Under the pieces are notes generated by a model. It had not been told where the DNA came from. It was given only the letters and a program-made list of their open reading frames with translations, and made no database searches. Made by a program: the position numbers and the translations under genes. Source: an uncultured Gammaproteobacteria bacterium (GTDB lineage: Bacteria > Patescibacteriota > Microgenomatia > Levybacterales > UBA12049). Taken from it: 64,000 bases of DNA. Of this stretch, positions 7,866 to 64,000 are shown piece by piece (the first letter of the stretch is position 1; each line of letters starts with the position of its first letter). The stretch is taken from NCBI GenBank assembly GCA_964497535.1, contig CAZCCG010000001.1, positions 194,858 through 258,857 on the forward strand, in the 5' to 3' direction.

Positions 7866-8399
7866 TTATTGGAGTTTGTCAGGAACAAATCTGAGTGCCA
7901 GGGAATTCATACAATATCTTTTGCCGGTAGGCTTGGGTCCGTCATCAAAAACATGCCCCAAGTGCCCGCCGCATTTATCCAGTACTTCAATACGTGTTTC
8001 ACCCAGACTGTTATCTTCCGAAAGTACCACTGCGCCCGGCTGTATTGGAGCCCAGAAGCTGGGCCAGCCGGTACCTGAATCATATTTTTGTTCCGAGCGA
8101 AACACCGGTTCGTTGCATCCCACACTGTAGTATGTTCCTTTGCGTGTCTCATAATCCAGCAGCCCTGAAAAGGGAATTTCAGTACCTGCTTCCCGCAGGA
8201 TATGATACTGATCAGGAGTGAGAATCTTTTTCCACTGAGCATCGGTTTTGAATTTACTCTTGTCAAATGTCCCGGCGATAATCTGGGGAGTGGGCGAAGA
8301 AGTATCAGACGGTTGTGCGGGGGTTTGATGAGTAGCAAGAAAGATGATACCAAGCGTAATCACCACTGCGACAGTAAAAAAAAGGTACGGTCTTTTCAT
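7866..8399 (-). CDS. msrB: peptide-methionine (R)-S-oxide reductase MsrB with N-terminal membrane anchor/signal
   Basis: 177 aa. MsrB core (YSVGCNEPVFRSEQKYDSGTGWPSFWAPI...RIEVLDKCGGHLGHVFDDGPKPTGKRYCMNSLAL) preceded by a hydrophobic N-terminus and a linker. Confidence 0.8.
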   Translation of the reverse strand: MKRPYLFFTVAVVITLGIIFLATHQTPAQPSDTSSPTPQIIAGTFDKSKFKTDAQWKKILTPDQYHILREAGTEIPFSGLLDYETRKGTYYSVGCNEPVFRSEQKYDSGTGWPSFWAPIQPGAVVLSEDNSLGETRIEVLDKCGGHLGHVFDDGPKPTGKRYCMNSLALRFVPDKLQ

Positions 8400-10433: not shown

Positions 10434-11156
10434 ATGAACGAAAGTCAAAAAAAAGAAATACTAAATAAATTTAAAGAATTTTTCGAGACAACAATTGCTG
10501 TTAACCATCTCAAGAATTTGAATAAATTAACAAAGTTAACAGCCTTTGAATATAACCCATTTCTCTTTATTTATCTCGCTAAATTTTTAACAGGTACTAG
10601 TGATTCACAAAGTTTAGCAAAAATTTTAATTTATCCAAGAATTCTCGGAACATCAATTACTACTAGTTTTGGACAGAATTTACAAAATGCTGCCCCCAAA
10701 CTATTTCAATCAGTATTGGGGTCAACAACATCAGGAATCGACTTGGAATTCATAGACCAAGTTGATAAAAGGAAAAAATATTGTCAAATTAAATCTGGAC
10801 CAAATACTATAAACAAAGATGATGTTGAAACTATTTCAAATCATTTTAAAGGTGTAAGAGGAATAGCCCGCATTAATAACGTTCAAGTGGGATTAGATGA
10901 TTTAGTAGTTGGTGTTTTGTTTGGTACAGAAAAACAGTTGAACGGAAATTATAAAAAAGTTATGCAACAACACACTGTTTTCGTTGGAAAAGAGTTCTGG
11001 TATAGATTAACAGGTGATGAAGGGTTTTACGCTGATCTTATTAAAGCATTCGGAGATGCTGCAATAAAGACAAACGGAAAAGCTACGCTTGAAAGAGTTG
11101 TTAATGCTCTATCAATAGATATTGAAATAAATTTTATAAATAAGGAATTAAAATAA
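10434..11156 (+). CDS. putative type II restriction endonuclease (PD-(D/E)xK-like), partner of the adjacent C5 methyltransferase
   Basis: 240 aa. Candidate catalytic segment GIDLEFIDQVDKRKKYCQIKSG. Sits immediately upstream of a Dcm-type methyltransferase on the same strand. No recognisable housekeeping family. Confidence 0.4.
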   Translation: MNESQKKEILNKFKEFFETTIAVNHLKNLNKLTKLTAFEYNPFLFIYLAKFLTGTSDSQSLAKILIYPRILGTSITTSFGQNLQNAAPKLFQSVLGSTTSGIDLEFIDQVDKRKKYCQIKSGPNTINKDDVETISNHFKGVRGIARINNVQVGLDDLVVGVLFGTEKQLNGNYKKVMQQHTVFVGKEFWYRLTGDEGFYADLIKAFGDAAIKTNGKATLERVVNALSIDIEINFINKELK

Positions 11157-11199
11157 TGTTTTAGTAGAAATAATCATAGTTCTATATAGTAAATAACCA

Positions 11200-12516
11200 T
11201 TGCATAATGTATTGGTTACTATCCATAATAGAGATATGGATAGTAAAAATCTTCTTACCGTTTCAGATGCTGCAAAACAACTGAATGTATCTCCAGATAC
11301 AATTCGTAGATGGGAGAAAAAAGGGCTAATTAGAGGAATACGATCCGAACATAATTATCGTCTTTTTAGTTTGAATGAACTGAAACGTATCTATAATAAA
11401 ACCCAAGGAACTTCACAAGAAAATAACTACAAAATTCTTAAAACAAAGAAAAAAACTAAATATACATGTATAGAACTTTTTGCGGGAACTGGTGGTACCG
11501 CGTTAGGACTCGAACATGCAGGGCTTCAACATGTTCTACTTAACGAGTTCGATAAAAATTGTGTTGCAACCCTTAGAAGAAATAGGCCAAAGTGGAATGT
11601 ATTACATGAGGATGTTTCAAAAGTTGATTTCAAGAGATGGAAAGGGAAAGTAGATATTGTTCAGGGAGGTTTTCCATGTCAAGCATTTAGTTATGCAGGG
11701 AAAAAACTTGGTTTTGAAGATACAAGAGGGACATTATTCTATGAATTCGCGCGTTGCATAAAAGAAGTACGACCCAAAATAGCAATGGGAGAAAATGTAA
11801 GAGGATTACTTACTCATGAAAATGGAGAAACATTGAAAGCAATGACTCAAATTTTAGATGAATTAGGATATAACGTAACTTACAAGGTGGTAAAAGCACA
11901 ATATTTAGATGTACCACAAAAAAGGGAAAGATTGATAATAATTGGAGTTAGAAAAGATTTAAATATCCCCTTTATTTTTCCAAAAGAAAAAGATTATACA
12001 ATTTCGCTTCGTGAAGCATTGAAAAACGTTCCCAAGTCTTCAGGTCAAGAATATCCTGAAAAAAAGAAAAAGATTATGAAACTTATTCCACCAGGAGGTT
12101 ACTGGAAGGATTTAATACCAAAGTTGCAAAAAGAATATATGGGTGCCAGTTATTATATGGGTGGTGGAAAGACAGGAATGGCACGAAGATTATCGTGGGA
12201 CGAACCAAGTCTTACTCTGACATGCGCTCCTGCCCAAAAACAAACAGAACGATGTCATCCAGAAGAGACGAGACCATTAACTGTTCGAGAATACGCTCGT
12301 ATACAGACATTTCCTGATGAATGGGAGTTTGTCGGTTCTACAGCGTCACAATATAAACAAATAGGCAACGCGGTACCAGTAAATTTAGGGTATCATATGG
12401 GACGGTGTTTAATTGTAATGTTAGATGGAGTAAAACAAGCAGAAAATATGGATGTGATTAAGGAATTTAAAGAAAATAACCCATCAGTATACAACCCTGC
12501 TTCATTTTCTTTATAA
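11200..12516 (+). CDS. DNA (cytosine-5)-methyltransferase with N-terminal MerR/excisionase-type HTH (SsoII/MspI-like regulatory methyltransferase architecture)
   Basis: Motif I FAGTGG, motif IV PCQ (GFPCQAFSYAGK), motif VI ENV (GENVRGL), motif VIII QKRERLIIIG, and C-terminal GNAVP. N-terminal HTH TVSDAAKQLNVSPDTIRRWEKKGLI. The start may be the internal MDSKNLL. Confidence 0.85.
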   Translation: MHNVLVTIHNRDMDSKNLLTVSDAAKQLNVSPDTIRRWEKKGLIRGIRSEHNYRLFSLNELKRIYNKTQGTSQENNYKILKTKKKTKYTCIELFAGTGGTALGLEHAGLQHVLLNEFDKNCVATLRRNRPKWNVLHEDVSKVDFKRWKGKVDIVQGGFPCQAFSYAGKKLGFEDTRGTLFYEFARCIKEVRPKIAMGENVRGLLTHENGETLKAMTQILDELGYNVTYKVVKAQYLDVPQKRERLIIIGVRKDLNIPFIFPKEKDYTISLREALKNVPKSSGQEYPEKKKKIMKLIPPGGYWKDLIPKLQKEYMGASYYMGGGKTGMARRLSWDEPSLTLTCAPAQKQTERCHPEETRPLTVREYARIQTFPDEWEFVGSTASQYKQIGNAVPVNLGYHMGRCLIVMLDGVKQAENMDVIKEFKENNPSVYNPASFSL

Positions 12517-18929: not shown

Positions 18930-19394
18930 ATGTCTGGGGGTAAGCTTGACCAAAACGCAATTGAGGAGATCATCCCACATCGCTATCCATTCCTCTTCAT
19001 CTACGAAATTGAAGAGGTAGACTTTGGCCATCGGGCTGTGGGTCTGATCCGCGATGTAGCAATATTTAGGGAAGTGCTTCATGGACACTTTCCCGGATAC
19101 CCGGTCTTTCCCGGTGCGCTTCTGGTGGAGGCATTGGCAGAAGTTGGGGCTATCGCGATGCTTGGTATGGAGGCTAACCGTGGAAAGCTTGCTTTCATTA
19201 CCGGGCTAAACAATTGGAAGTTTCGCAAACCGGCTCTTCCGGGTGTTATGCTGCGATTGGAGGTTTCACTAACTGCGTCACGAGGACAATTCGGACGAGC
19301 ACACGGGTGTGTCACAACAGCCGCGGGTGAACTCGTATGTGAAGGAGATTTCTCGTTCGCCCTTGGTGCCCGTCCCCCCGGGATGGAGGGATAA
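18930..19394 (+). CDS. fabZ: 3-hydroxyacyl-ACP dehydratase FabZ-like (hotdog fold), on a higher-GC island
   Basis: 154 aa. HRYPFLFIYEIEEV...HFPGYPVFPGALLVEALAEVGA...FRKPALPGVMLRLEV matches FabZ. GC about 52% against about 35% flanks. GGAGG Shine-Dalgarno site. Confidence 0.75.
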   Translation: MSGGKLDQNAIEEIIPHRYPFLFIYEIEEVDFGHRAVGLIRDVAIFREVLHGHFPGYPVFPGALLVEALAEVGAIAMLGMEANRGKLAFITGLNNWKFRKPALPGVMLRLEVSLTASRGQFGRAHGCVTTAAGELVCEGDFSFALGARPPGMEG

Positions 19395-24518: not shown

Positions 24519-24851
24519 TTAATACGCAGTTTTGCCGGGAGAAAGCGGTACCATGTGGGGGCCTGAATAATAGTGCCCTTGTGATTGGAACAGTTGTGGA
24601 TTGGTTGCCAGGAAATATATAAAGAGAATTGCGGTAAGGAATGTCACAATTGCGGGAGTAAGAATCACAACTTTAACCCATGACGGCCATTTCATCCAGA
24701 GAAATGTGAAAATCACTCCCAGTGGATAAAAGAACAATAATAAGAGAATAGTGATAATCGTTTTTGTGTCGTATGAAAGGTCTGCAGATGATGAGCGTTT
24801 TTTCTGTGCCATACTATTATTAAGACGAATTCCTAGGAAAATGTCAAGCAA
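24519..24851 (-). CDS. small membrane protein
   Basis: The start is probably the internal MAQKKRSS. Two TM helices. Lies downstream of the glycosyltransferase gene. Confidence 0.4.
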   Translation of the reverse strand: MLDIFLGIRLNNSMAQKKRSSSADLSYDTKTIITILLLLFFYPLGVIFTFLWMKWPSWVKVVILTPAIVTFLTAILFIYFLATNPQLFQSQGHYYSGPHMVPLSPGKTAY

Positions 24852-26208
24852 GTGGATGAGAAGTCAGATATTGCGCAGTATGTTCCCAAAACAGATGTAC
24901 ACCGGTTGATGTCAGCTCTATCACATGGCCGTCTTTTGCGTCTTCTTCAATGCGGCATTTGACCATTTCCCCAAAAATTCCAACCCGTTCACACCAGGTG
25001 ATAAATTGAGCAGATGGTTTGGAATGGAACGGCAGAACCAGTCCTCTCCAAGCAGAAGCCATAGCCAAAAGCTCCTGGCCCCGCTGGTTTTGCAGTGGAT
25101 CATCCATGCGTGCTTTTTCAAAGAGCTCTTGTTCTATATGATGGCCCGGTATGAGATGATGGCGTCTGAGAAATTCCAGATTATCCCGTTCCTGTTGTCC
25201 GACCGGATTTGAAAACAGAAGCAGCGTTCCTCCCCGTTGGGTAGGATTGCACAGACACTTAAATGCCTGCTCACTGGGTTTGGTAATTTCCAATGAGATC
25301 GTTGTCTGGTGAAAAAGCAGATCATAATTATTGACGGTTCCCCGATCATGAGATGATACATGGAGCTGGACAAATGGTTTATCCAGCATATACCCCAGGA
25401 AGTTTTTGGTATAGGGTGCGTCTTTTACTACGATATGGAATAAAAATCGCTCGGAGATTTGATGCAGGTTATCGATTAAATCTGCCACAAATGTTGTGCC
25501 GACTGCTGCTCCTGAAATGGGTACTGACACATGGATATGTGATTTTTTTTCAGGATCCAGCTGGTCTTTCCGATTGGTGAGTTGTTCATGAGTCAGATGT
25601 CGGGTCAGATCAGGACTGACAGGATAAGCTAACACTTCAAAGTTGACCGGTGGGATATGGTAGGTTTTGCCAAAGTGTACGAGCTTTTCACGAGTTGTAA
25701 AGCTGGGAACAAAAATAATATCGGCACCATCCACATACCAGATTGGATGAGGACTATCATCGGTTACCTGGACTACCAGAATAATCCTGACTTGTCTTTT
25801 TTTCTCAACGATGCCTTTAATTTCTGCAAGTTGATGGGCCAATCCAAAATGCGTGGCAACGATAAGGATTGTCTGGGGCAAATCGATCCGTTCATCCAGG
25901 ATAGTAGTAAGTTGTTGATACAACAATTTAGTATGGCTTCGAAGCATTAGCCGATACACATAAGCGGCAATATCCTGTAACCATCCTCGTTGTACCACCT
26001 CAAACATTGCACGAGTGATGGGGTGAATACTGATAAAACGGTGAATCCAGCTGATTGATTTGTCCTGGGTTCCCAAAAGAACCGGTGTTATTTCTTCAGG
26101 CAGTCCCCGATAGAGTGCGTCGGTAACACGCAAATGTCCCAAGCCTGCGGGGGCGAAAGCAAAAACTAAAACCAATGACTTTTTCTCAAGAATAGAGAAA
26201 GTATTCAT
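24844..26208 (-). CDS. GT-B fold glycosyltransferase (MGDG-synthase/MurG-like, family 28-like)
   Basis: 454 aa. The N-terminal FAPAGLGHLRVTDAL resembles the glycine-rich loop of MGDG synthase and MurG N-domains. Weak. Confidence 0.45.
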   Translation of the reverse strand: MNTFSILEKKSLVLVFAFAPAGLGHLRVTDALYRGLPEEITPVLLGTQDKSISWIHRFISIHPITRAMFEVVQRGWLQDIAAYVYRLMLRSHTKLLYQQLTTILDERIDLPQTILIVATHFGLAHQLAEIKGIVEKKRQVRIILVVQVTDDSPHPIWYVDGADIIFVPSFTTREKLVHFGKTYHIPPVNFEVLAYPVSPDLTRHLTHEQLTNRKDQLDPEKKSHIHVSVPISGAAVGTTFVADLIDNLHQISERFLFHIVVKDAPYTKNFLGYMLDKPFVQLHVSSHDRGTVNNYDLLFHQTTISLEITKPSEQAFKCLCNPTQRGGTLLLFSNPVGQQERDNLEFLRRHHLIPGHHIEQELFEKARMDDPLQNQRGQELLAMASAWRGLVLPFHSKPSAQFITWCERVGIFGEMVKCRIEEDAKDGHVIELTSTGVHLFWEHTAQYLTSHPLA

Positions 26209-26239
26209 AGATTAAGTGTAGTAAACAACAGAAGCAGAT

Positions 26240-26272
26240 ACAAGTTAGTGAAGTGTATAAAAAAAGCCCCGG
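26240..26272 (-). terminator. intrinsic terminator (GCCCCGGC-GCTA-GCCGGGGC plus U7) for gene 26275..26841
   Basis: Perfect 8 bp GC stem. On the minus strand it is followed by TTTTTTT. Confidence 0.8.
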
Positions 26273-26274
26273 CG

Positions 26275-26841
26275 CTAGCCGGGGCTGTAAGTATCACCAG
26301 AGGGAAGAGCCAAGAGCACCATTGGTGAATTGAGAACCCGAGGTTCATAAACCAGCACTTCGGTGCTCACATACTCCTTCTTTACCAGGACCCTGCTCTG
26401 CAGCATTTCCTGGTTGGTGAAGATCACGAGCGGTCCATTCCTAGGTGCCCACAGGCACCCGAAGAACCAGCGGGCATCAGTCTCGCTGGGGAAGAGTTCG
26501 TAGACGACCCGAGGCAACGCCTCGGCCCAGTCAAAACCGTAGTCGTTGTCCATATGCATGGGCACGACACGGTCCGAACCCAGGTCGGGGATTTCCTGAC
26601 AGATAAACCGCCACACGTGAGGTTCATCGGCGAGCCGGAAGGAGGCGAGTACCTCCCACAGTTTGTTGTGAAAGGCAATCATGCTCCCCGGCTGGTAATC
26701 CTGGGTGAACCGGGGCGGCTTGCCCGCCGGCATCAGTTCCACCTCCTCGAGGTGAGATTCCTCGTCCCAGGTGCGCATGCGGATGAGTTCTTCATCATCC
26801 AGGTAAAACCCGTGGATCGGATCGCCAACCTGAACACTCAT
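26275..26841 (-). CDS. hypothetical protein (higher-GC island gene 1)
   Basis: 188 aa. AAGGAG Shine-Dalgarno site 7 nt before the ATG. GC about 55%. Own promoter and terminator. Confidence 0.55.
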   Translation of the reverse strand: MSVQVGDPIHGFYLDDEELIRMRTWDEESHLEEVELMPAGKPPRFTQDYQPGSMIAFHNKLWEVLASFRLADEPHVWRFICQEIPDLGSDRVVPMHMDNDYGFDWAEALPRVVYELFPSETDARWFFGCLWAPRNGPLVIFTNQEMLQSRVLVKKEYVSTEVLVYEPRVLNSPMVLLALPSGDTYSPG

Positions 26842-26890
26842 GGTAACTCCTTCTGAAATGTGCGCTGAGGTACAGTTGTACCATCATAGA

Positions 26891-26930
26891 GGAATATAGC
26901 ATACCCGCCCCTGCGAGTCAATACTACAGG
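26891..26930 (-). promoter_or_regulatory. consensus sigma70 promoter P1 (TTGACT-N17-TATATT), one of three near-identical copies
   Basis: On the minus strand: CCTGTAGTATTGACTCGCAGGGGCGGGTATGCTATATTCC. Confidence 0.7.
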
Positions 26931-26984
26931 CTTCTGTCTCTGGAATAAGAAAGGGCGGCCCCGTATGGGGTCGCCCTGTTGGAT

Positions 26985-27470
26985 TTACTGCTGAGTAGTT
27001 CTCTCGGGTTCTGGGTCAGGGGGAGCCTTGCTCATGTCAATGCTAGCAATTGGCGTGAGGCTTCCCTCCTCGTCGCTTCCTCGAGGGAGGAAGGTTACCT
27101 CCCACCCGCACGTGCGGTAATGTTCAGCAACTCGCCGATAGACGAGTCGGGCATACTGAGGCGGTACAGTCCCTTCCCATACGAATAGTGCTTCGTTGAG
27201 TCGTACCACCGATATGCTCACGTCGAAGTCATCGGTGGTCAACAGCGAATCGATCGCTAACTCGCAGACAGCGTTCGCTGCTTGAATCACGCGATCTACT
27301 CGTATGCGACGCCGCTTGATCGACGGTGGCGGTCTGTCGCGGGAACCCATTTCACTCCTCCCCTTCCATAGTCTATGAGCGCCTCCGTGGATACCAGCTA
27401 GGGTACCCACAAAGCCACTCACAGCAAAAGGATTAGCTTTACCACGAACTATTAAAGAACTACTAATCAT
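26985..27470 (-). CDS. hypothetical protein (island gene 2); likely start at the internal MGSRDRPP preceded by GGAGGAG
   Basis: 161 aa ORF. The internal Met at about 27350 has a strong Shine-Dalgarno site. Terminator hairpin GGGCGGCCCC..GGGGTCGCCC at 26949-26982. Confidence 0.45.
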   Translation of the reverse strand: MISSSLIVRGKANPFAVSGFVGTLAGIHGGAHRLWKGRSEMGSRDRPPPSIKRRRIRVDRVIQAANAVCELAIDSLLTTDDFDVSISVVRLNEALFVWEGTVPPQYARLVYRRVAEHYRTCGWEVTFLPRGSDEEGSLTPIASIDMSKAPPDPEPERTTQQ

Positions 27471-27516
27471 AAATAAGATAGAGTTTTTGTATCTACAGAA
27501 GGATAGATTTAGTTAG

Positions 27517-27557
27517 AGGAATATAGCAGAAAGAATAGTACATGTCAACACTACAGG
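27517..27557 (-). promoter_or_regulatory. consensus sigma70 promoter P2 (TTGACA-N17-TATATT)
   Basis: On the minus strand: CCTGTAGTGTTGACATGTACTATTCTTTCTGCTATATTCCTC. Confidence 0.7.
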
Positions 27558-27636
27558 ATGTTATGTTGAAGGAGGTGCCATTGACTGAAAAGGACTAAAG
27601 AAAACCCCCTTCAGCAGAAGCCGAAGAGGGTAACGA

Positions 27637-27882
27637 TTAACTACAGTATGGGCAAGGGATTTTCCCCGCATCTGCCATAGAGTCGAGGTACCCTTTCCCG
27701 TGGCAATGTGCGCAACGAGTCACGGTTTTATGGCCGAATCGTTGCGAGTGCTCGTTCTGCTGGCCGGTTCCTCCGCACCACGTGCAGGTGAACCTGCCTG
27801 AGTCGGTCATAGAATCCATCTTGCCGGTGCCGTAGCAGCCGGCACAGATCTCTTCCCGTGGGCCACCCTGATAGCTACTCAT
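27637..27882 (-). CDS. small cysteine-rich protein with four CxxCxGxG repeats (DnaJ CR-type zinc-finger-like)
   Basis: 81 aa. CAGCYGTGK, CTWCGGTGQ, CAHCHGKGY, CPYC. AAGGAG Shine-Dalgarno site. Terminator at 27590-27636. Confidence 0.6.
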   Translation of the reverse strand: MSSYQGGPREEICAGCYGTGKMDSMTDSGRFTCTWCGGTGQQNEHSQRFGHKTVTRCAHCHGKGYLDSMADAGKIPCPYCS

Positions 27883-27911
27883 GTATGTCTCCTTTCAGAC
27901 ACCACTATTGA

Positions 27912-28304
27912 CTACTTGATCCATAGGGCATACTGCCCTACCGGAACCAATTTACCCTTTCGGGTAAAAGGCAGATCCGCTACACGGTATCCCTCCCTCA
28001 TCAGCCTAGCATGCAACCGAGTCGGCTGATCAGGGTGAGGAAATACCCCATGCATCTCCCATCCCTGAGCGAGAGCCTCCTGCGCCGTGTGAGGAAATGC
28101 CTGGACGAGTTCGTGAACCTCATCCTCCGTCAACCATTCCGAGAGAGGGCTTAGCTCCCTCAGGTCGTGGAAGAGCTTCTGACGACCTGCCTCTTCCCGC
28201 GGAAGAAGCCGATCATCTTCGTACCAGTGGGTATCCGGCATATAAGTCTCCTCTCGATGAATATGGCGTTGAAGAAATATAGCATACATACGTCCGGGAG
28301 TCAA
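27912..28304 (-). CDS. hypothetical protein (island gene 4); likely start at the internal MPDTHWYED
   Basis: The track ORF opens with TTG inside promoter P3. The internal ATG has an AGGAG Shine-Dalgarno site 7 nt upstream. No recognisable domain. Confidence 0.5.
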   Translation of the reverse strand: MTPGRMYAIFLQRHIHREETYMPDTHWYEDDRLLPREEAGRQKLFHDLRELSPLSEWLTEDEVHELVQAFPHTAQEALAQGWEMHGVFPHPDQPTRLHARLMREGYRVADLPFTRKGKLVPVGQYALWIK

Positions 28305-39769: not shown

Positions 39770-40519
39770 TTAGATTGGTTCTTGATAAATTACGTCTTCC
39801 ACTACACCCAATATTCTCGTATGAAGATGGGGGAATTCAAGCGTTTTACCTGTTGTTCTGATTCTTTTTCGTAGCTCTCCAAGCGTAGGTAGGTTTTGGT
39901 CATCATATCTTTGGGAGGGTTCTTGGGGTGAGCCAAACAAACTATAAATCGGGTCATCCGTAATTTGGTGCGGATAATCGGACAGCTTGGGAAGCTCCTG
40001 TCCATAACGGATCCGTTCCCGTTTTGTTTTTGAAGATTCTTTCTCGTGATACTCACTCCATGAGTCATATCGTTTCTCGGATAAATGCATTGTTTTCGTG
40101 CATAAAAAACTCCCACACATACAATTGTGAATACAGGGATCACACCATTTGTCCAGAGGACTGAGCAGATAAGAAACGGTCAATTCCTCGCCTGCAAAAA
40201 TATGCCGAAGGGCAAAAAAAAGTGTATGGCCACGATAGGTATACATCCAACAATTTGGAGTGCATGAATGGTTGATCAGATGAATACCGGGTTTTTTGAT
40301 ATCAGTAGGGTAAATTGAGGCTCTGTCATGATAATACATCAGATATAATTCATCATCTTTTTCATAGATAGTCTCCTCAGCTGTCTTTAAAACACGTCCC
40401 AGATAGTCACCGATAATAGTGCCCGGATTAATATCTTTTTTCGCAAAAACCCCTCTGCCTTTTTTCTCCGTAGTTTTAATTTTCCAGTAATCTTTTGTGA
40501 GCAAAAACATAGAATTCAT
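39770..40519 (-). CDS. SET-domain protein (putative protein lysine methyltransferase)
   Basis: GRGVFAKKDINPGTIIGDYLG, NHSCTPNC, GEELTVSY and a post-SET Cys cluster CDPCIHNCMCGSFLC. The track ORF (to 40576) opens with TTG. Confidence 0.75.
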   Translation of the reverse strand: MNSMFLLTKDYWKIKTTEKKGRGVFAKKDINPGTIIGDYLGRVLKTAEETIYEKDDELYLMYYHDRASIYPTDIKKPGIHLINHSCTPNCWMYTYRGHTLFFALRHIFAGEELTVSYLLSPLDKWCDPCIHNCMCGSFLCTKTMHLSEKRYDSWSEYHEKESSKTKRERIRYGQELPKLSDYPHQITDDPIYSLFGSPQEPSQRYDDQNLPTLGELRKRIRTTGKTLEFPHLHTRILGVVEDVIYQEPI

Positions 40520-40602
40520 TCTATCATATAGAGGAGATGAAAGAAAAAATGAGGCTAGTTCATGCCTGCAGCCCAAAACCTATAGTCATTGACAACTGCT
40601 GT

Positions 40603-44231: not shown

Positions 44232-44789
44232 TCACTTATACTCGTCTTTTACTTTATCATTGAATTCTTTAAGGAGTTTTTGAATTTTTGGGTCGATGAC
44301 TACTCTGCAATAAGGAGCGGATTTATTACTATCATAATAGTTTTGATGGTAGCTTTCAGCTTTATAGAAATTTTGAAACGGTACAATATCTGTCACAATT
44401 GGTTTGTCATATAATTTTTCTTTCTCTATTTTTTCTTTTGATTTTACTGCTTTTTCTTTTTGTTCTTCATTATGGTAAAGAATAAGTGAACGATATTCGG
44501 TTCCAATATCTGCTCCTTGTTGATTGAGAGTGGTGGGGTTATGCAGGTGCCAAAAAATTTCCAGCAAGTCATCATATGAAATAAGCGTAGGATTAAATTC
44601 TACTTGGATTGCTTCCGCATGGCCGGTAGTACCGCTATGAAGAGCTTCATATGAAGGATTTTGGGTAGAGCCACCTGCATAACCTGAAGTGACAGATAAT
44701 ACCCCTTTCAGGCGTTTGAATACTGCTTCTGTGCACCAAAAACATCCACCGGCAAAGGTCGCCATTTCTAATTGTTTTGATTCCTTCAT
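44232..44789 (-). CDS. msrA: peptide-methionine (S)-S-oxide reductase
   Basis: 185 aa. Active site ATFAGGCFWCTEAVF. Confidence 0.9.
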   Translation of the reverse strand: MKESKQLEMATFAGGCFWCTEAVFKRLKGVLSVTSGYAGGSTQNPSYEALHSGTTGHAEAIQVEFNPTLISYDDLLEIFWHLHNPTTLNQQGADIGTEYRSLILYHNEEQKEKAVKSKEKIEKEKLYDKPIVTDIVPFQNFYKAESYHQNYYDSNKSAPYCRVVIDPKIQKLLKEFNDKVKDEYK

Positions 44790-46692: not shown

Positions 46693-47139
46693 CTATTTAT
46701 AAACAATCTTGACTCCTGTATTTATCATTGCTTTTATTAATTGTTGAAAACTACAATATTGAGAGTTTCCTTGTGAGGGATCGTGATAGTAAATCATTCC
46801 ATTTTCGAATCTATACAGTAAAACCGAATGGAGACCTTTTTTTCCTGGATATACATGATGCAGCCTAATTGATGTTTGGATCAAGTTTCCTTGTTCAAGG
46901 AATTGTTTGATTTCGTCTTCCATCAAGTTTTTATAAATAGCAGTATCTAATCCGTATTCTTTCGCAAGTTCTGCAATTGATGTATTCAATATATTTTTAA
47001 ACTTTTTACCATATTCCTTTTCAACTTTTTGAGTCAACTCTTCTTCTGTGACATCATTATTGTTTGATGCTAAAACCATACGAAGAACTGCAAGCGAGCA
47101 GGTATAAGCCTGTTCTTGCTTGAAATAGGGAGGAATCAT
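46693..47139 (-). CDS. standalone papain-like C39-type peptidase domain protein
   Basis: 148 aa. QEQAYTCSLAVLRMVL is a catalytic Cys motif (Q...C...A...M.L). There is a His downstream. Confidence 0.55.
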   Translation of the reverse strand: MIPPYFKQEQAYTCSLAVLRMVLASNNNDVTEEELTQKVEKEYGKKFKNILNTSIAELAKEYGLDTAIYKNLMEDEIKQFLEQGNLIQTSIRLHHVYPGKKGLHSVLLYRFENGMIYYHDPSQGNSQYCSFQQLIKAMINTGVKIVYK

Positions 47140-54333: not shown

Positions 54334-56517
54334 TCAAGCGGCAATAACTATCTTACCGTTCTCAACTTTTGGAGTAATAGTATCACCTGGTTTAATTTTA
54401 TCTTCGGTAATTTTAAGGGCTATTTCATCGACTAATTTTTCTTCAATGAGCCGTTTTAGGGGACGCGCTCCAAATACAGGGTCATATCCGTATTCTGCGA
54501 AGTAAAAGGCGAGCTCGTCTGAAACTTTCAGTTCAATTCCATTTTCACGCATGCGTTCCTGGACTGAATCTAACTGCAATTTTGTGATTTGTAAGATATC
54601 CCGTGCGGAAAGTGTATTGTAAATAACCACTGAATCAAATCGATTCAGAAATTCCGGGCGAAATGAATGATGAAGCAATTCCCAGATTCTTTTATCCAGT
54701 TCTTCTTTTTTCTTATCATGGTGGGATTTTTTGGAACTTGCTGTTTCTGTGGAATATTCCTGGATAATCTCGCTACCGATATTGCTTGTCATGATAATAA
54801 TAGTATTTCTAAAATCGACAGTCACTCCCTTACTATCAGTGAGTCTTCCTTCATCCATGATTTGAAGAAAAATATTAAAAATTTGGGGATTTGCTTTTTC
54901 TATTTCATCAATCAGAACAACAGAGTATGGTTTTCTTCGTACGGCCTCAGTAAGTTGTCCTCCTTCTTCATATCCTACATATCCTGGAGGTGCCCCAATG
55001 AGTCTGGCTACCGTATGAGATTCTTGATATTCGCTCATATCAATACGAGTCATAGCATGTTGATCGGAAAATAGAATTGTTGCCAAAGCTTTAGCAGTTT
55101 CTGTTTTTCCAACTCCTGTTGGACCCAAGAACAGAAATGATCCGATTGGTTTATTTTTCGCGGCAAGTCCTGTACGAGATCGTCTGATTGCTCGTGCCAA
55201 AACATGAAGTGCTTCTTTTTGTCCAATAACCCGCTGTTCCAATTCTTCCTCTAAATGTGCAAGCTTTTGGGATTCTGTTGCAAGGAGCCGCGTTATTGGA
55301 ATACCGGTCCACCGTGATACAACGCGAGCGATATCCTGGGCGTCTACTTCTTCACGCAAAATTCTCTGGTCATGAGGAATGGTATTCCATTCTGCAGTTA
55401 TCGTTGATAATTGTTTTTCAAGTTCTGGAATCTTGCCATACTTTATTTCTGCTGCTTTTTGAAGATCAATCGTTCGTTCTGCTTGTTCAAGCTCAATTCG
55501 ATATGAGTCTATTTTTGCCCGTAAGTCTTGAATTTTTTTAATAATTTCCTTCTGTTCATTCCATCGTGTCTCAATATCCGCAGACTGTTTTTTCAGACTA
55601 TCTAATTCCTTTTCCAAATTATCCTTCCGTTGTTTTGCACTGTCGTTTTTTTCTTTCTTCAACGCTGCTTTTTCAATCTCTACTTGGGTAGTTCTGCGTT
55701 TGAGTGAATCAAGCTCTGTTGGCATACTTTCTGTCTCAATTTTAATAGATGCTGTTGCCTCATCGACTAAATCAATTGCCTTGTCTGGCAGGAACCGTTG
55801 CGCAATATATTGTGCGGAAAGTTTTGCTGCTGCTATCAATGCATCATCAGTAATTCTAATTCCATGATGGAGTTCATATTTTTCTTTAATGCCCCGTAAA
55901 ATTGCTATGGTATCTTCAATGGTTGGCTCTTCAACCATAACAGGTTGGAAACGTCGTGCAAGAGCCGGATCTTTTTCAATGTATTTGCGGTATTCACTTA
56001 GAGTTGTTGCTCCAATCATCCGAAGTGAACCACGTGCCAACGATGGTTTTAGAATATTGGCCGCGTCAACTGATCCTTCTGCTGCCCCTCCGCCTACCAG
56101 GGTATGCAACTCATCAATAAACATAATGTATTTTCCTTCTCCTTCCTCAACTGCTTTAATAACTCCTTTGAGACGGTCTTCAAATTCACCTCTGAATTTT
56201 GCTCCTGCCAAAAGTTGGGCAAAATCCAATACTATGACTTCTTTATTTTTCAAAGTCGTAGGGACACTTCCTGCGGCAACCTTTTGTGCCAAACCTTCTA
56301 CAATTGCTGTTTTTCCCACGCCAGGATCTCCAATAAGAATTGGATTATTTTTGGTTCTTCGGGATAAAATCTCCATTACCCGGCGAATTTCAGTTTCACG
56401 TCCTACAACCGGATCAATTTTATTTTTTCGAGCGGAATCAGTTAGATTCAATGTAAATTTGTTGAGCGCTTCCTGCGGAGTTATGGGTTTTAATAAATCT
56501 TGTAAGTTCTGATCCAT
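54334..56517 (-). CDS. clpB: ClpB-like AAA+ disaggregase lacking the N-terminal domain
   Basis: 727 aa. Starts at the NBD1 linker. Two Walker A motifs ([16 protein letters not shown]), a coiled-coil middle domain, and sensor and substrate-recognition motifs. Confidence 0.85.
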
Positions 56518-57329: not shown

Positions 57330-57869
57330 ATGGAAGAACAACAATCTTCAGAGTCTCAATCTTCATCTTCATCAGCGCTGCCAAAAATCCTAGGAATTCT
57401 GGTTATAGTAGTACTTTTGGGGGTAGGAGGGTATTACCTTGTTTCTTCTCAAAAGTCGTCTCAACCATCGTCTATGAATCAAAGTCCTTCTCCTATGCCG
57501 TCGCAGTCAACGATGATGGAAGATCAAACAACTCAAACACCGAGCCAAACTGCACCTTCGACAGGCCCATCTCAAGCACAGACAACGGAAGGAATGGTAA
57601 AGACAATTACTGTTACAGGCAAAAATTTCTCTTTTGATCCGGGAACCATTACGGTAAAACAAGGAGATACGGTAAAAATTAATTTTTCTAACGTTGGCGG
57701 TATGCATGATTTTGTAATTGATGAATTTAATGTAAAAACTCCTCGAATACAAGGAGGAAATAGTGCGGAAGTAGAGTTTGTAGCTAATAAAAAAGGGACG
57801 TTTGAATATTATTGCAGTGTGGGTTCCCATCGCCAAATGGGCATGGTAGGCAAACTCATTGTTGAATAA
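57330..57869 (+). CDS. membrane-anchored cupredoxin (plastocyanin/azurin-like blue copper protein)
   Basis: 179 aa. TM anchor and Ser/Gln/Pro linker. Copper ligands in GGMHDFVI...YYCSVGSHRQMGM. Confidence 0.7.
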   Translation: MEEQQSSESQSSSSSALPKILGILVIVVLLGVGGYYLVSSQKSSQPSSMNQSPSPMPSQSTMMEDQTTQTPSQTAPSTGPSQAQTTEGMVKTITVTGKNFSFDPGTITVKQGDTVKINFSNVGGMHDFVIDEFNVKTPRIQGGNSAEVEFVANKKGTFEYYCSVGSHRQMGMVGKLIVE

Positions 57870-58283: not shown

Positions 58284-59837
58284 TTACTTCAGCTCCACAG
58301 TAAAGTCTGCAGTGAAAAGTTTATTATCTGGATTAAATTGAGCAAAGACTCGATAGATGCCCGGCTGTAGTGGTCCATATAAACCAATTGGTAAGAATTC
58401 TACTGTCGGGCCGCCATTAGAATTAGGTGGTGGAGGCAAAACAAGGGTAGGATGGACATGAATATAGTCATATGTCTTTTTATTAATCATAACTAAATGT
58501 CCGAAGGCGGCCAAGTAAGGTTTGAGGTTTGTAATAGGTTTTTGGGTAGTTGCGTTTCTGATTGTAAATGAAATTTTTTGATCTCCCAAAGTTAATGCCT
58601 GTGTTTGTAGCTTCTTTGCAGGAGACATCGTTACTTGATAGGTCCCAAATGTTTTAGTGAACTTTTTATCTACATTTTGAGAGGCATTTATTTGTAGTGC
58701 AGTTCCTACAGGGACTGTAAATGCAAACTGCTGTTCGATAGCACCAAATGGTTGGAAATTTAGATAAACATGATAGATGCCGTCTGCGGGAAATTGTGTC
58801 GTTATCCAAAATTCGTCATTATCTTGAGTAGGGTGAATATGGGTAAAATAATTCAACTGACTATTGACGATAATCATATGCATGGGTTTTTCATACAGCG
58901 TACGAAAGAGAGTTACAGGATTTCCTGAACTCGCGTCAAAAATTTTAAAATGTAGAGTAGTATCTTGTTTTGGTTGTATTTGGTCAGGATAATAAAAGCT
59001 TACGGTATATCGTTTAGTACGATCTCCTATAAGGCTGGGGATTTTGGATTGTTGTTGCGACTGTGATTGAGTAAGAAGATCTTGTGCTATTTGTTGATGT
59101 TGGGAATGGATATTAAGGGATGGGATAGAGGAGTTTGGGATATATAGTAAAACCAGCACTATTCCCAGAACTACAATCGGTACAATAAATCCTATTGAAT
59201 AGTTTGGAAGTTTAGGAAATGTATTGCGGAGAAATAAATCAAAACGATAACTTTCAAGTATTAGCAGAAATACAATCATCAGAAGCAATAGAACTGAAAG
59301 AGGACTTGAAAAAGAACGGAAATCAGAACCAATTATAAAAGCATGAATAAGAATCAGAATTCCCCCTACATATACAAATCGATGGAGCATTTTCCACCGT
59401 TTTCCCAGCTTTTTAACCCAATAGTCAAAAGCAGTAAGGGTCAACAGTAATAAAATACAGAGTGCGAGAAAGCTCAACGTTACTGATAATAGATAATTTG
59501 GGGAGAGAAAAGGTAACCCTTCAAAGCCGCCCAGAGATAGAAAGAATGCAATTGAACCATGCAGCAATGCAGTAAAAAATACAGAGACTCCCAGAGCACG
59601 TCTGGCTCGTATATAGACTGCTTGATAGGCAAGAGTTGGAAATGCACGATATAAAGGACTGGGAAGAAGGGTAAGATATAATAATAGCAAAGAAAACAAA
59701 GCATACGCTTGCGTAAGTCGTATTATAACAAGAGGTTGCGAATGAATTGTTATAATAGTTATCAAAAAAATAATTACAACAATAGCACTATTAATGGCAA
59801 GAATTATTGGACGGATAGAGCGAAGTAGAAATGTCAT
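58284..59837 (-). CDS. membrane protein with ferric-reductase-like (YedZ/MsrQ-like) di-His TM domain and large extracytoplasmic C-terminal domain
   Basis: 517 aa. Paired His in TM helices (LLHGSIAFF; MLHRFVYVGGILILIHAF). ATGA-coupled to the upstream PKD gene. Confidence 0.4.
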   Translation of the reverse strand: MTFLLRSIRPIILAINSAIVVIIFLITIITIHSQPLVIIRLTQAYALFSLLLLYLTLLPSPLYRAFPTLAYQAVYIRARRALGVSVFFTALLHGSIAFFLSLGGFEGLPFLSPNYLLSVTLSFLALCILLLLTLTAFDYWVKKLGKRWKMLHRFVYVGGILILIHAFIIGSDFRSFSSPLSVLLLLMIVFLLILESYRFDLFLRNTFPKLPNYSIGFIVPIVVLGIVLVLLYIPNSSIPSLNIHSQHQQIAQDLLTQSQSQQQSKIPSLIGDRTKRYTVSFYYPDQIQPKQDTTLHFKIFDASSGNPVTLFRTLYEKPMHMIIVNSQLNYFTHIHPTQDNDEFWITTQFPADGIYHVYLNFQPFGAIEQQFAFTVPVGTALQINASQNVDKKFTKTFGTYQVTMSPAKKLQTQALTLGDQKISFTIRNATTQKPITNLKPYLAAFGHLVMINKKTYDYIHVHPTLVLPPPPNSNGGPTVEFLPIGLYGPLQPGIYRVFAQFNPDNKLFTADFTVELK

Positions 59838-62564: not shown

Positions 62565-62918
62565 TTAAAGTCCCAGTTGATGTTTTAAGGTTAAAAATAA
62601 TTTCCCCCAAAACCCGGCTTTTTGATATTTTGTATAGTCTTGTTTTTTATACCAGTCGGCAGATCCAGGTAACGGAGGATCAATCCAGGCAGAAATAACT
62701 ACCCACTCATTCCGGTCATTTTTTTTTGCGATGATAGTTATAGTAGAATTGGAAAATTTTTTAATATATTCCACAGATCCCGGATTCTTTCCGGGGAAAC
62801 TTCTGTCGGGATTTTTAAAAGCCGAAAGAGCATCACTTTGAGAAAGACCTCTTTGTACAAGACGTTCTAATGCATGATTGGTCCAAATAATACCTCCATA
62901 TTGTTGTACGCTATTCAT
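62565..62918 (-). CDS. DUF4258-domain protein
   Basis: 117 aa. IIWTNHALERLVQRGLSQSDA. Confidence 0.45.
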   Translation of the reverse strand: MNSVQQYGGIIWTNHALERLVQRGLSQSDALSAFKNPDRSFPGKNPGSVEYIKKFSNSTITIIAKKNDRNEWVVISAWIDPPLPGSADWYKKQDYTKYQKAGFWGKLFLTLKHQLGL

Positions 62919-63301
62919 ACTCTCTATCTATTATAGCAAACTTACAGTCAATCAATACCTCTTTACCTCTTTCGTAATCCTTACTGTTATTTTCCTGAAT
63001 TCTTACCCCGTATCTGTACTATAAGCACATGTATAAAAAAATTAAAATACATGATTATGCATATCAAAAAAGGAGAAATGCTTTTTTGAGAAGGCATTCT
63101 CCAAAATACAGCTTTATAATAGGTGGATTAATATTCCAAGAATTGGCTTTCAATACATTCAGCATTCAGCAATCGGTATGTGTCGTGGGAGAAAAAATAG
63201 TTCGGAAACTAATGAAAGAATGTATAGAAAAAAGGATCGTACCACTTCCTCGAGTTGGTTTTTGAGTGGATATTTGGTTGACATCAAAGTAGGATTTTAT
63301 T

Positions 63302-63799
63302 ATGATAAAAGGAATGAAAAATATATTCAATGCTTTTATCTCCAGTCTGCCATCAGAAACAGTCTACGCGCATTGTGATATTCCTTGTGGGATTTATGAT
63401 CCCCATAATGCCCAAATGGCAGCCCACACCGTAATCCGAATGACTCAATTGCTTGGAGAAGTAAAACGAGATAATGAAACAAAGGCAGAACATGATATTT
63501 CCAGAATGACTAAAGTGAAAGAACATCATGGAGAATTGGTAGAGGATGAATTGGGCACGCTTGAAAATGATTATTTTAAAGATGAACATTTTAAAGCATA
63601 CCCGCAATTAAAAGATCTTCTTTTTTCTGCCGTAAAATTATCAATTACAACACGACAAACAATAGATATAGACGGCGCAAAAGAAATGCTTGAAAAAGTC
63701 ATGCAAATTGCGGAAATCTTTTATAAGACCAAAGCCCTTGAACCTATCCGTATAAAATCTCCGTATCCCACAGGTCTTGACATTGTTCTTTATAAATAA
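63302..63799 (+). CDS. sodN: nickel superoxide dismutase precursor (23-aa propeptide, then the Ni-hook HCDIPCGIYDP)
   Basis: 165 aa. ...ETVYA|HCDIPCGIYDP. Four-helix-bundle C-terminal part. Confidence 0.85.
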   Translation: MIKGMKNIFNAFISSLPSETVYAHCDIPCGIYDPHNAQMAAHTVIRMTQLLGEVKRDNETKAEHDISRMTKVKEHHGELVEDELGTLENDYFKDEHFKAYPQLKDLLFSAVKLSITTRQTIDIDGAKEMLEKVMQIAEIFYKTKALEPIRIKSPYPTGLDIVLYK

Positions 63800-64000
63800 T
63801 GCCGCTTTTTGCATTTTACAGAATTTCTGGCAGAAGTATGGAGCCTGCTTTGCAGGAAAGACAAACAGTCATAGTTAGTTCTATTCCTTTTTTCTTTTTC
63901 CCTCCGCAGGTAAATGACATTATTGTCGTATGTACCCCAAAAGTAAAAAATAAAATCATAAAACGCATAAAAAAGAAAAGACATAATACATTTTTTGTTG
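63799..64000 (+). CDS. sodX: NiSOD maturation peptidase SodX (signal-peptidase S26 family), 3' end truncated by the window
   Basis: TAATG overlap with sodN. MPLFAFYRISGRSMEPALQERQTVIV... has the S26 catalytic SMEP motif. The frame is open to the end of the window. Confidence 0.7.
   Translation, partial: MPLFAFYRISGRSMEPALQERQTVIVSSIPFFFFPPQVNDIIVVCTPKVKNKIIKRIKKKRHNTFFV

Follow-up and report, generated by a model that had tools for sequence, protein, structure and literature searches.

A standard nickel superoxide dismutase module with a leader of typical length in a Levybacteria-like patescibacterium

The stretch of DNA analysed here (64,000 nucleotides, hereafter the window) ends with two genes that very probably form a standard two-gene module for a nickel superoxide dismutase (NiSOD), composed of sodN and the adjoining sodX, with a leader peptide of typical length and native to the lineage of its host, a Levybacteria-like bacterium of the Patescibacteria/CPR. 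The module as such is already known, being annotated in public Levybacteria genomes, and a 161-aa protein 100% identical to the window SodN has already been deposited (P0001, NCBI/Logan). Nothing specific on NiSOD in CPR was found in the searched literature, where SOD genes of Patescibacteria and DPANN are mentioned in general terms (PMC9938205) and Fe/Mn SODs are reported in Wolfebacteria (PMC10172142). Features of the module, together with other features of the window, are collected in Table 1.

Table 1. Positions of the NiSOD module and of other features in the window.
Feature	Position	Strand	Description
Sigma-70-type promoter (putative)	63278-63306	+	-35 TTGACA 63278-63283, 17-nt spacer, -10 TATGAT 63301-63306
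sodN, long ORF	63302-63799	+	165 aa; longest-ORF reading (ORF list)
sodN CDS, preferred start	63314-63799	+	starts at Met5 of the long ORF; 161-aa pre-protein
Leader (pro)peptide	63314-63370	+	MKNIFNAFISSLPSETVYA; 19 aa (23 aa if the start is 63302)
Ni-hook	63371-63403	+	HCDIPCGIYDP; His1/Cys2/Cys6/Tyr9 of the mature enzyme; aa 24-34 of the long ORF
Mature SodN	63371-63796	+	142 aa; predicted four-helix bundle and C-terminal 21-aa extension
sodX, 5' part	63799-64000	+	S26-family SodN maturation peptidase; 67 of about 94 codons present, the rest beyond the window
ORF in the 380-bp spacer upstream of sodN	63029-63265	+	78 aa; gene call on Logan contigs
DUF4258/PBECR3-like gene	62565-62918	-	toxin-like nuclease; directly upstream of sodN
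MsrA	44232-44789	-	
MsrB (SelR)	7866-8399	-	
Cupredoxin	57330-57869	+	
Ferric-reductase-like membrane protein	58284-59837	-	with YtkA-like domain
SET-domain protein	39770-40576	-	protein lysine methyltransferase-like
High-GC patch	24844-28304		GC 0.47 (window mean 0.39); four ORFs without Pfam matches
ORF in the high-GC patch	26275-26841	-	GC 0.57, GC3 0.71
ORF in the high-GC patch	26985-27470	-	GC 0.54
FabA-like gene	18930-19394	+	GC 0.53; GGAGG site
Type II restriction-modification pair	10434-12516	+	GC 0.30-0.35; EcoO109I-like endonuclease, C5 cytosine methylase with N-terminal MerR-type HTH

SodN and its nickel hook

The preliminary description had recognised the gene as a NiSOD with HCDIPCGIYDP as its Ni-hook, and this assignment was borne out by comparisons with family profiles and with solved structures. 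The protein scores above the cut-offs of both the NCBIfam equivalog TIGR02753 (133 bits, cut-off 90) and Pfam Sod_Ni PF09055 (119.9 bits, cut-off 25, E=1.3e-34). In a phmmer search against PDB sequences, it aligns from His24 onward (long-ORF numbering, codon 63371-63373) with the mature Streptomyces enzymes 1q0d and 1t6u from residue 1 onward (E=5e-18), placing His24 on His1 of the solved NiSODs and matching the hook to positions 1-11 of 1q0d residue for residue. The translation of the long ORF opens with MIKGMKNIFNAFISSLPSETVYA, and the hook follows. The same 11-mer is present in 104 of the 120 closest homologues and no hook is commoner among the 50%-cluster representatives; in an alignment of 22 sequences (A1) the hook and 49 further columns are invariant. 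Judged from its sequence, the gene is a bona fide NiSOD (sodN) with an intact Ni-hook. The NiSOD four-helix-bundle fold is predicted for its product by an AlphaFold2 model (mean pLDDT 88), which Foldseek relates to the PDB structures of NiSOD 1t6u, 1q0d and 3g50 with a target-normalised TM of 0.88-0.93 and a probability of 1.00.

Nothing was found that would support a decaying or inactive copy of the gene, even if the replacement of the Streptomyces Glu17 by Ala in the window SodN is taken into consideration, and the chance of such a copy is practically nil. Neither a mutated Cys or His of the hook in the alignment nor a pseudogene was encountered: the ORF is uninterrupted, every hook residue is kept, the 49 invariant columns are held in common with the relatives, and the fold is predicted with high confidence.

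Compared with the NiSODs of Streptomyces coelicolor and S. seoulensis (1t6u, 1q0d), the window protein has in common a mature N-terminus formed by the hook H-C-D-x-P-C-G-x-Y-D-P, a cleavable leader with small-x-Ala as its last residues, a dedicated S26 peptidase gene beside sodN and the four-helix-bundle fold, which on the side of the window is a predicted model, at 32-35% sequence identity. The two differ in the leader, with 14 aa in Streptomyces and 19 (or 23) aa in the window, and in the mature chain, which has 117 aa in Streptomyces and 142 aa in the window, where the chain also has a loop insertion of 6 residues and, at its C-terminus, a conserved extension of 21 aa. The extension (aa 145-165, 63734-63796) lies outside both the TIGR02753 profile and the Streptomyces structures and is predicted to form a beta-hairpin (AlphaFold2, pLDDT ~93). 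Its residues R150, Y155, P156, T157, V162 and K165 are invariant in the 22 sequences, and it is common to the CPR and archaeal relatives, as their mature lengths of 136-159 aa show.

A different comparison is offered by the sodN-sodX genes of marine cyanobacteria (Prochlorococcus/Synechococcus), where the size class of the pre-protein, the position of sodX beside sodN and the occurrence of NiSOD as an SOD in small genomes are the same as in the window host. The cyanobacteria differ from the window host, a CPR bacterium, in phylum and habitat, and also in the hook, HCDIPCGIYDP in the window against HCDGPCGVYDP, which we take to be the cyanobacterial type and which is present among the 50%-cluster representatives. 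From the 'superoxide dismutase, Ni' of Levybacteria/Patescibacteria MAGs (60-75% identity), finally, the window module differs in nothing of substance, sharing with them the leader consensus (..LP..(T/I)AYA, followed after the cleavage site by HCD), the C-terminal extension, a sodX coupled through TAATG and the geometry of the promoter.

Leader length and the start of translation

With the 14-aa propeptide of Streptomyces as a yardstick, the propeptide of the window SodN had been described as unusually long, at 23 aa. The family as a whole does not agree with such a view. In a set of 82 full-length sequences that represent 50%-identity clusters of a library of 1.84 billion proteins, the leader has a median length of 20 aa and an interquartile range of 17-22.75, and while 26% of the representatives have leaders of at least 23 aa, only 15% have 14 aa or fewer, with sequences of the Streptomyces type (HCDLPCGVYDP, leader ending in VSA) forming the short extreme. 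Closer to the window sequence, the leaders annotated in the 120 closest homologues are mostly 17-21 aa long, with a mode of 19 aa, and those of the two nearest database homologues are longer (P0002, 24 aa; P0004, 22 aa). At 161-165 aa, the window pre-protein also belongs to the same size class as the pre-proteins of cyanobacterial NiSODs, whose published lengths span 145-166 aa and are most often 157 aa (PMC8346466). Around the cleavage site, where V-Y-A is followed by H, the window SodN has A at position -1, V at -3 and P at -7, in comparison with Ala at -1 in 98-99%, Ala/Val at -3 in 93-98% and Pro at -7 in 56-75% of the homologues. Whether it consists of 19 or 23 residues, the leader is of a length typical for the NiSOD family, and even a correct 23-aa leader would not be unusual, because more than a quarter of the family representatives have leaders at least as long.

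In regard to the leader of the window protein itself, the length of 23 aa stands as the longest-ORF reading, and the second in-frame ATG (63314), leading to 19 aa, is better supported. The sodN promoter, the best site of its kind in the region, matches 11 of the 12 consensus positions. The first in-frame ATG (63302-63304) falls within its -10 box, and a further 7 nt separate the end of the box from the second. The arrangement recurs in relatives: promoters with at least 9 of 12 matches and a -10 box ending 6-12 nt before the sodN ATG were found in 25 of 34 related loci, compared to 1.3% for random positions and to 25% for the starts of other ORFs in related CPR loci. The few loci without this geometry (L032, L044 and L065) have clear AGGAG/GGAGG-type sites instead. 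Within the window, a -10 box with at least 5/6 matches ends 5-12 nt before the start of 21 out of 50 genes, compared to 6.5% of random positions (p=1.4e-12), mostly at a distance of 6-8 nt (for example 62918(-), 54334-56517(-), 44789(-), 38551(-) and 46693-47139(-)). Motifs GGAG/GAGG at -4 to -18 precede only 3 of the 50 window genes, which equals the chance level, and the genome hardly uses Shine-Dalgarno sites. Because of the promoter geometry, its recurrence in relatives and the chance level of Shine-Dalgarno motifs, the second ATG is more likely to be the true start of sodN, giving a 19-aa leader and a 161-aa pre-protein, and the mRNA would be leaderless or near-leaderless, with a 5' end that we infer from the promoter geometry to lie at about 63313-63315. 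The 161-aa pre-protein with its 19-aa leader agrees with the deposited protein as well as with the mode of the clade.

Alternatively, translation could start from the first ATG at 63302, with AGGA as a Shine-Dalgarno site and with a 23-aa propeptide that would be exceptional for NiSOD. This ATG opens the longest ORF, AGGA is indeed located 7 nt upstream of it, and leaders of comparable length are those annotated in P0002 and P0004. Nevertheless, we consider such a start unlikely, as the best promoter has this codon within its -10 hexamer, Shine-Dalgarno motifs do not exceed their chance frequency, the geometry of a promoter abutting the ATG is kept in relatives, and the database copy corresponds to the 161-aa form. 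If the second ATG is used, leaderless expression may conceal that the upstream ATG, within the -10 box, is spurious. No description of leaderless expression in CPR was found in the searched literature.

Other elements were looked for around the gene. No terminator-like site was found near sodN, short repeats in the 380-bp spacer upstream of it look like chance, and the 78-aa ORF in the same spacer has neither a family match nor a homologue in related loci. Rfam searches of the 64 kb at gathering thresholds revealed no riboswitches, including NiCo, a single tRNA being the sole match.

The maturation peptidase and the nickel site

The overlap of the sodN stop with the sodX start, noticed already in the preliminary description, was confirmed, with TAA (63797-63799) sharing its last A with ATG (63799-63801) in the sequence TAATG, unlike in Streptomyces, where the two genes are separated by a conserved intergenic region (PMC3919588). 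The sodX frame reads MPLFAFYRISGRSMEP..., also given as MPLFAFYRISGRSMEPALQ..., up to the window end. The S26 motif reported for it is present, with the catalytic Ser13 (63835-63837, in GRSMEP) and Lys55 (63961-63963, in IKRI) as the presumed general base, and the match to Pfam Peptidase_S26 PF10502 is above the cut-off (36 bits, cut-off 22.9), all this in an incomplete gene, as the window ends after codon 67 and the remainder of sodX, like the genes that follow it, was deduced from relatives. With TIGR02754, the profile of the NiSOD maturation protease, the 67-aa fragment reaches 28.9 bits (cut-off 63.25), as expected of a fragment. It aligns throughout with orthologues of 93-96 aa, including the Ser (G[HR]SMEP) and the Lys (I/V-K-R-I box), and S26-like ORFs of this size are located downstream of sodN in 36 CPR loci, mostly with the identical 1-nt TAATG overlap.

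When an HMM built from CPR SodX was used, an S26-like gene was found to adjoin sodN in 76 of 80 related loci, archaea included, and three of the four exceptions are explained by contig ends or other causes. A search for the motif G.SM.P had indicated that most archaeal relatives are without sodX, and this was a false negative. Profile scores of full-length orthologues are divided, L003 and L004 exceeding the TIGR02754 cut-off of 63.25 (74.8 and 76.1 bits) and L007 and L013 remaining below it (55.3 and 58.4 bits), while all four exceed the cut-off of the generic signal peptidase I profile TIGR02227 (66-78 vs 47 bits). For this reason, the specific role of the S26 peptidase as SodX rests largely on synteny.

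Scores of this kind above the TIGR02227 cut-off, together with a cleavage site resembling A/V-x-A, could also mean that the leader is a Sec-type signal peptide, that the enzyme is exported and that the S26 peptidase is an ordinary signal peptidase I. We regard export as extremely improbable, as the hydrophobic stretch of the leader is short and predicted to form an amphipathic helix, the peptidase orthologues, with no more than 93-96 aa, are devoid of an N-terminal membrane anchor, and the peptidase gene goes together with sodN in 76 of 80 loci, bacterial and archaeal alike. In addition, His1 must be exposed for Ni binding, and the characterised NiSODs are cytoplasmic (PMC8346466, PMC3919588).

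Maturation by a dedicated SodX is the mechanism established for the NiSOD family, in which SodX removes the leader after Ala, exposing the His1 amine for the Ni site, and the enzyme then cycles between Ni(II) and Ni(III) to dismutate superoxide (PMC3919588, PMC8346466). By homology, the window SodN would follow the same scheme. According to the model that we favour, sodN is probably transcribed from the consensus sigma-70 promoter abutting its CDS into an mRNA that would be leaderless or nearly so, with translation starting at ATG 63314, and sodX would be translated by termination-reinitiation coupling at TAATG. The small soluble Ser/Lys peptidase SodX of the S26 family would cut the 161-aa pre-protein after the Ala of V-Y-A. 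As a consequence, the alpha-amine of His1 would be freed, and the hook HCDIPCGIY would then be able to bind Ni, its putative ligands being two groups of His1 (amine and imidazole), the amide N of Cys2 and the thiolates of Cys2 and Cys6. The mature four-helix bundle would dismutate superoxide in the cytoplasm, a location suggested by SodX orthologues without a membrane anchor, and could act as an oxygen-tolerance device in a small, largely fermentative CPR cell, beside the MsrA and MsrB encoded in the same window.

That the presence of NiSOD implies nickel uptake, as previously put forward, is a reasonable inference. Pfam scans of 60 of the approximately 67 window genes detected no NiCoT, HupE/UreJ, CbiM or Nik transporters and no Fur/Nur regulator, and no candidate Ni permease was seen adjoining sodN in the 36 CPR loci. 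Regulation of the Nur or s-SodF type, as in Streptomyces, is not evident for the window sodN. In addition to both methionine sulfoxide reductases (MsrA, MsrB), a cupredoxin is encoded in the window, as is a ferric-reductase-like membrane protein, and the four together fit an oxidative-stress toolkit; in 6 related loci MsrA is located less than 6 kb from sodN.

Relatives and inheritance of the module

Altogether, 3047 SodN homologues emerged when 5.8 billion proteins were searched, and the best named matches are 'superoxide dismutase, Ni' of Candidatus Levybacteria, Parcubacteria and Patescibacteria MAGs. When one genome per GTDB species was scanned, orthologues 50-72% identical to the window SodN were present in more than 30 genomes of Levybacteria, Daviesbacteria and Patescibacteria, followed, at 41-48% identity, by sequences of DPANN archaea, Thermoplasmata, Thaumarchaeota and Dehalococcoidia. 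In an NJ tree without bootstraps, the window SodN falls inside the Levybacteria/Daviesbacteria clade, which in turn adjoins a large archaeal clade. The base composition of sodN (GC 0.36, GC3 0.27) is indistinguishable from that of the flanking genes (z = -0.7 and -0.9), and the genes downstream of sodN-sodX in relatives repeatedly include a methyltransferase (25 loci), a FemAB-like gene (23) and a UvrD/PcrA helicase (22), with triose-phosphate isomerase (18 loci) and a LytR-family protein (15 loci) further along. Because of the native base composition and the conserved downstream synteny, the evidence points to vertical inheritance of sodN-sodX within the lineage.

The proposal that the module was probably acquired horizontally finds no backing in these observations, as the composition is native, the gene is nested in the Levybacteria/Daviesbacteria clade and the synteny is kept in 22-25 loci. 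Construction of a SodN phylogeny had been suggested as a check, and the NJ tree, without bootstraps, speaks against a recent acquisition by nesting the gene in the clade of its host. A recent horizontal transfer into this genome could be thought of in connection with the patchy distribution of NiSOD across phyla (PMC8346466) and with the upstream neighbours of sodN, a DUF4258 toxin-like gene and unknown membrane proteins, which are not conserved in relatives. Yet such a transfer seems very improbable when GC and GC3 are the same as in the flanking genes, orthologues occur across those 30-plus Levybacteria/Patescibacteria genomes and form one clade with the window sequence inside, and the order of sodX, methyltransferase, FemAB-like, UvrD/PcrA and triose-phosphate isomerase genes is common to relatives. 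Beside vertical inheritance within the lineage, an ancient exchange between domains at the root of the clade is possible, and with archaea as the next-closest relatives it keeps its plausibility.

The nearest SodN relatives outside CPR (L034-L078) come from Micrarchaeota, Nanoarchaeota, Woesearchaeota, Aenigmatarchaeota, Thermoplasmata, Thaumarchaeota and a Heimdallarchaeota MAG, and nearly all of these archaeal sequences have a neighbouring SodX-like gene. The gene that follows sodX in 25 related loci resembles an archaeal protein-lysine N-methyltransferase (NF041081, 91 bits, below cut-off), and a SET-domain protein is also encoded elsewhere in this CPR genome (Table 1). Many TPA_asm MAGs titled 'uncultured Gammaproteobacteria bacterium' (L005, L008, L011, L015, L016, etc.) carry a sodN-sodX of the Levybacteria type with the same synteny, and since their SodN sequences cluster inside the CPR clade, these titles look like mislabels.

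Some other parts of the window stand out by composition. The high-GC patch and the FabA-like gene, which is among the few genes with a real GGAGG site, may be foreign DNA, and the restriction-modification pair is low in GC.

The sodN-sodX clade brings together CPR Microgenomatia with DPANN, Thermoplasmata and Thaumarchaeota, a composition that suggests, and would fit, inter-domain transfer of an oxygen-defence module. We combine this only tentatively, as a proposal that falls slightly short of being probable, with leaderless mRNAs for sodN and about 40% or more of the genes in the genome. For the NiSOD family, the results introduce a correction, in that a leader of about 20 aa is the norm, and not the 14 aa of Streptomyces. 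For the annotation of this lineage, they mean that starts should be chosen by the proximity of a promoter, in the leaderless geometry, and not by the longest ORF or by motifs resembling Shine-Dalgarno sites. In regard to the biology of the host, little changes: the window bears out the presence of a complete oxygen-defence module of NiSOD and SodX in some ultra-small CPR bacteria.
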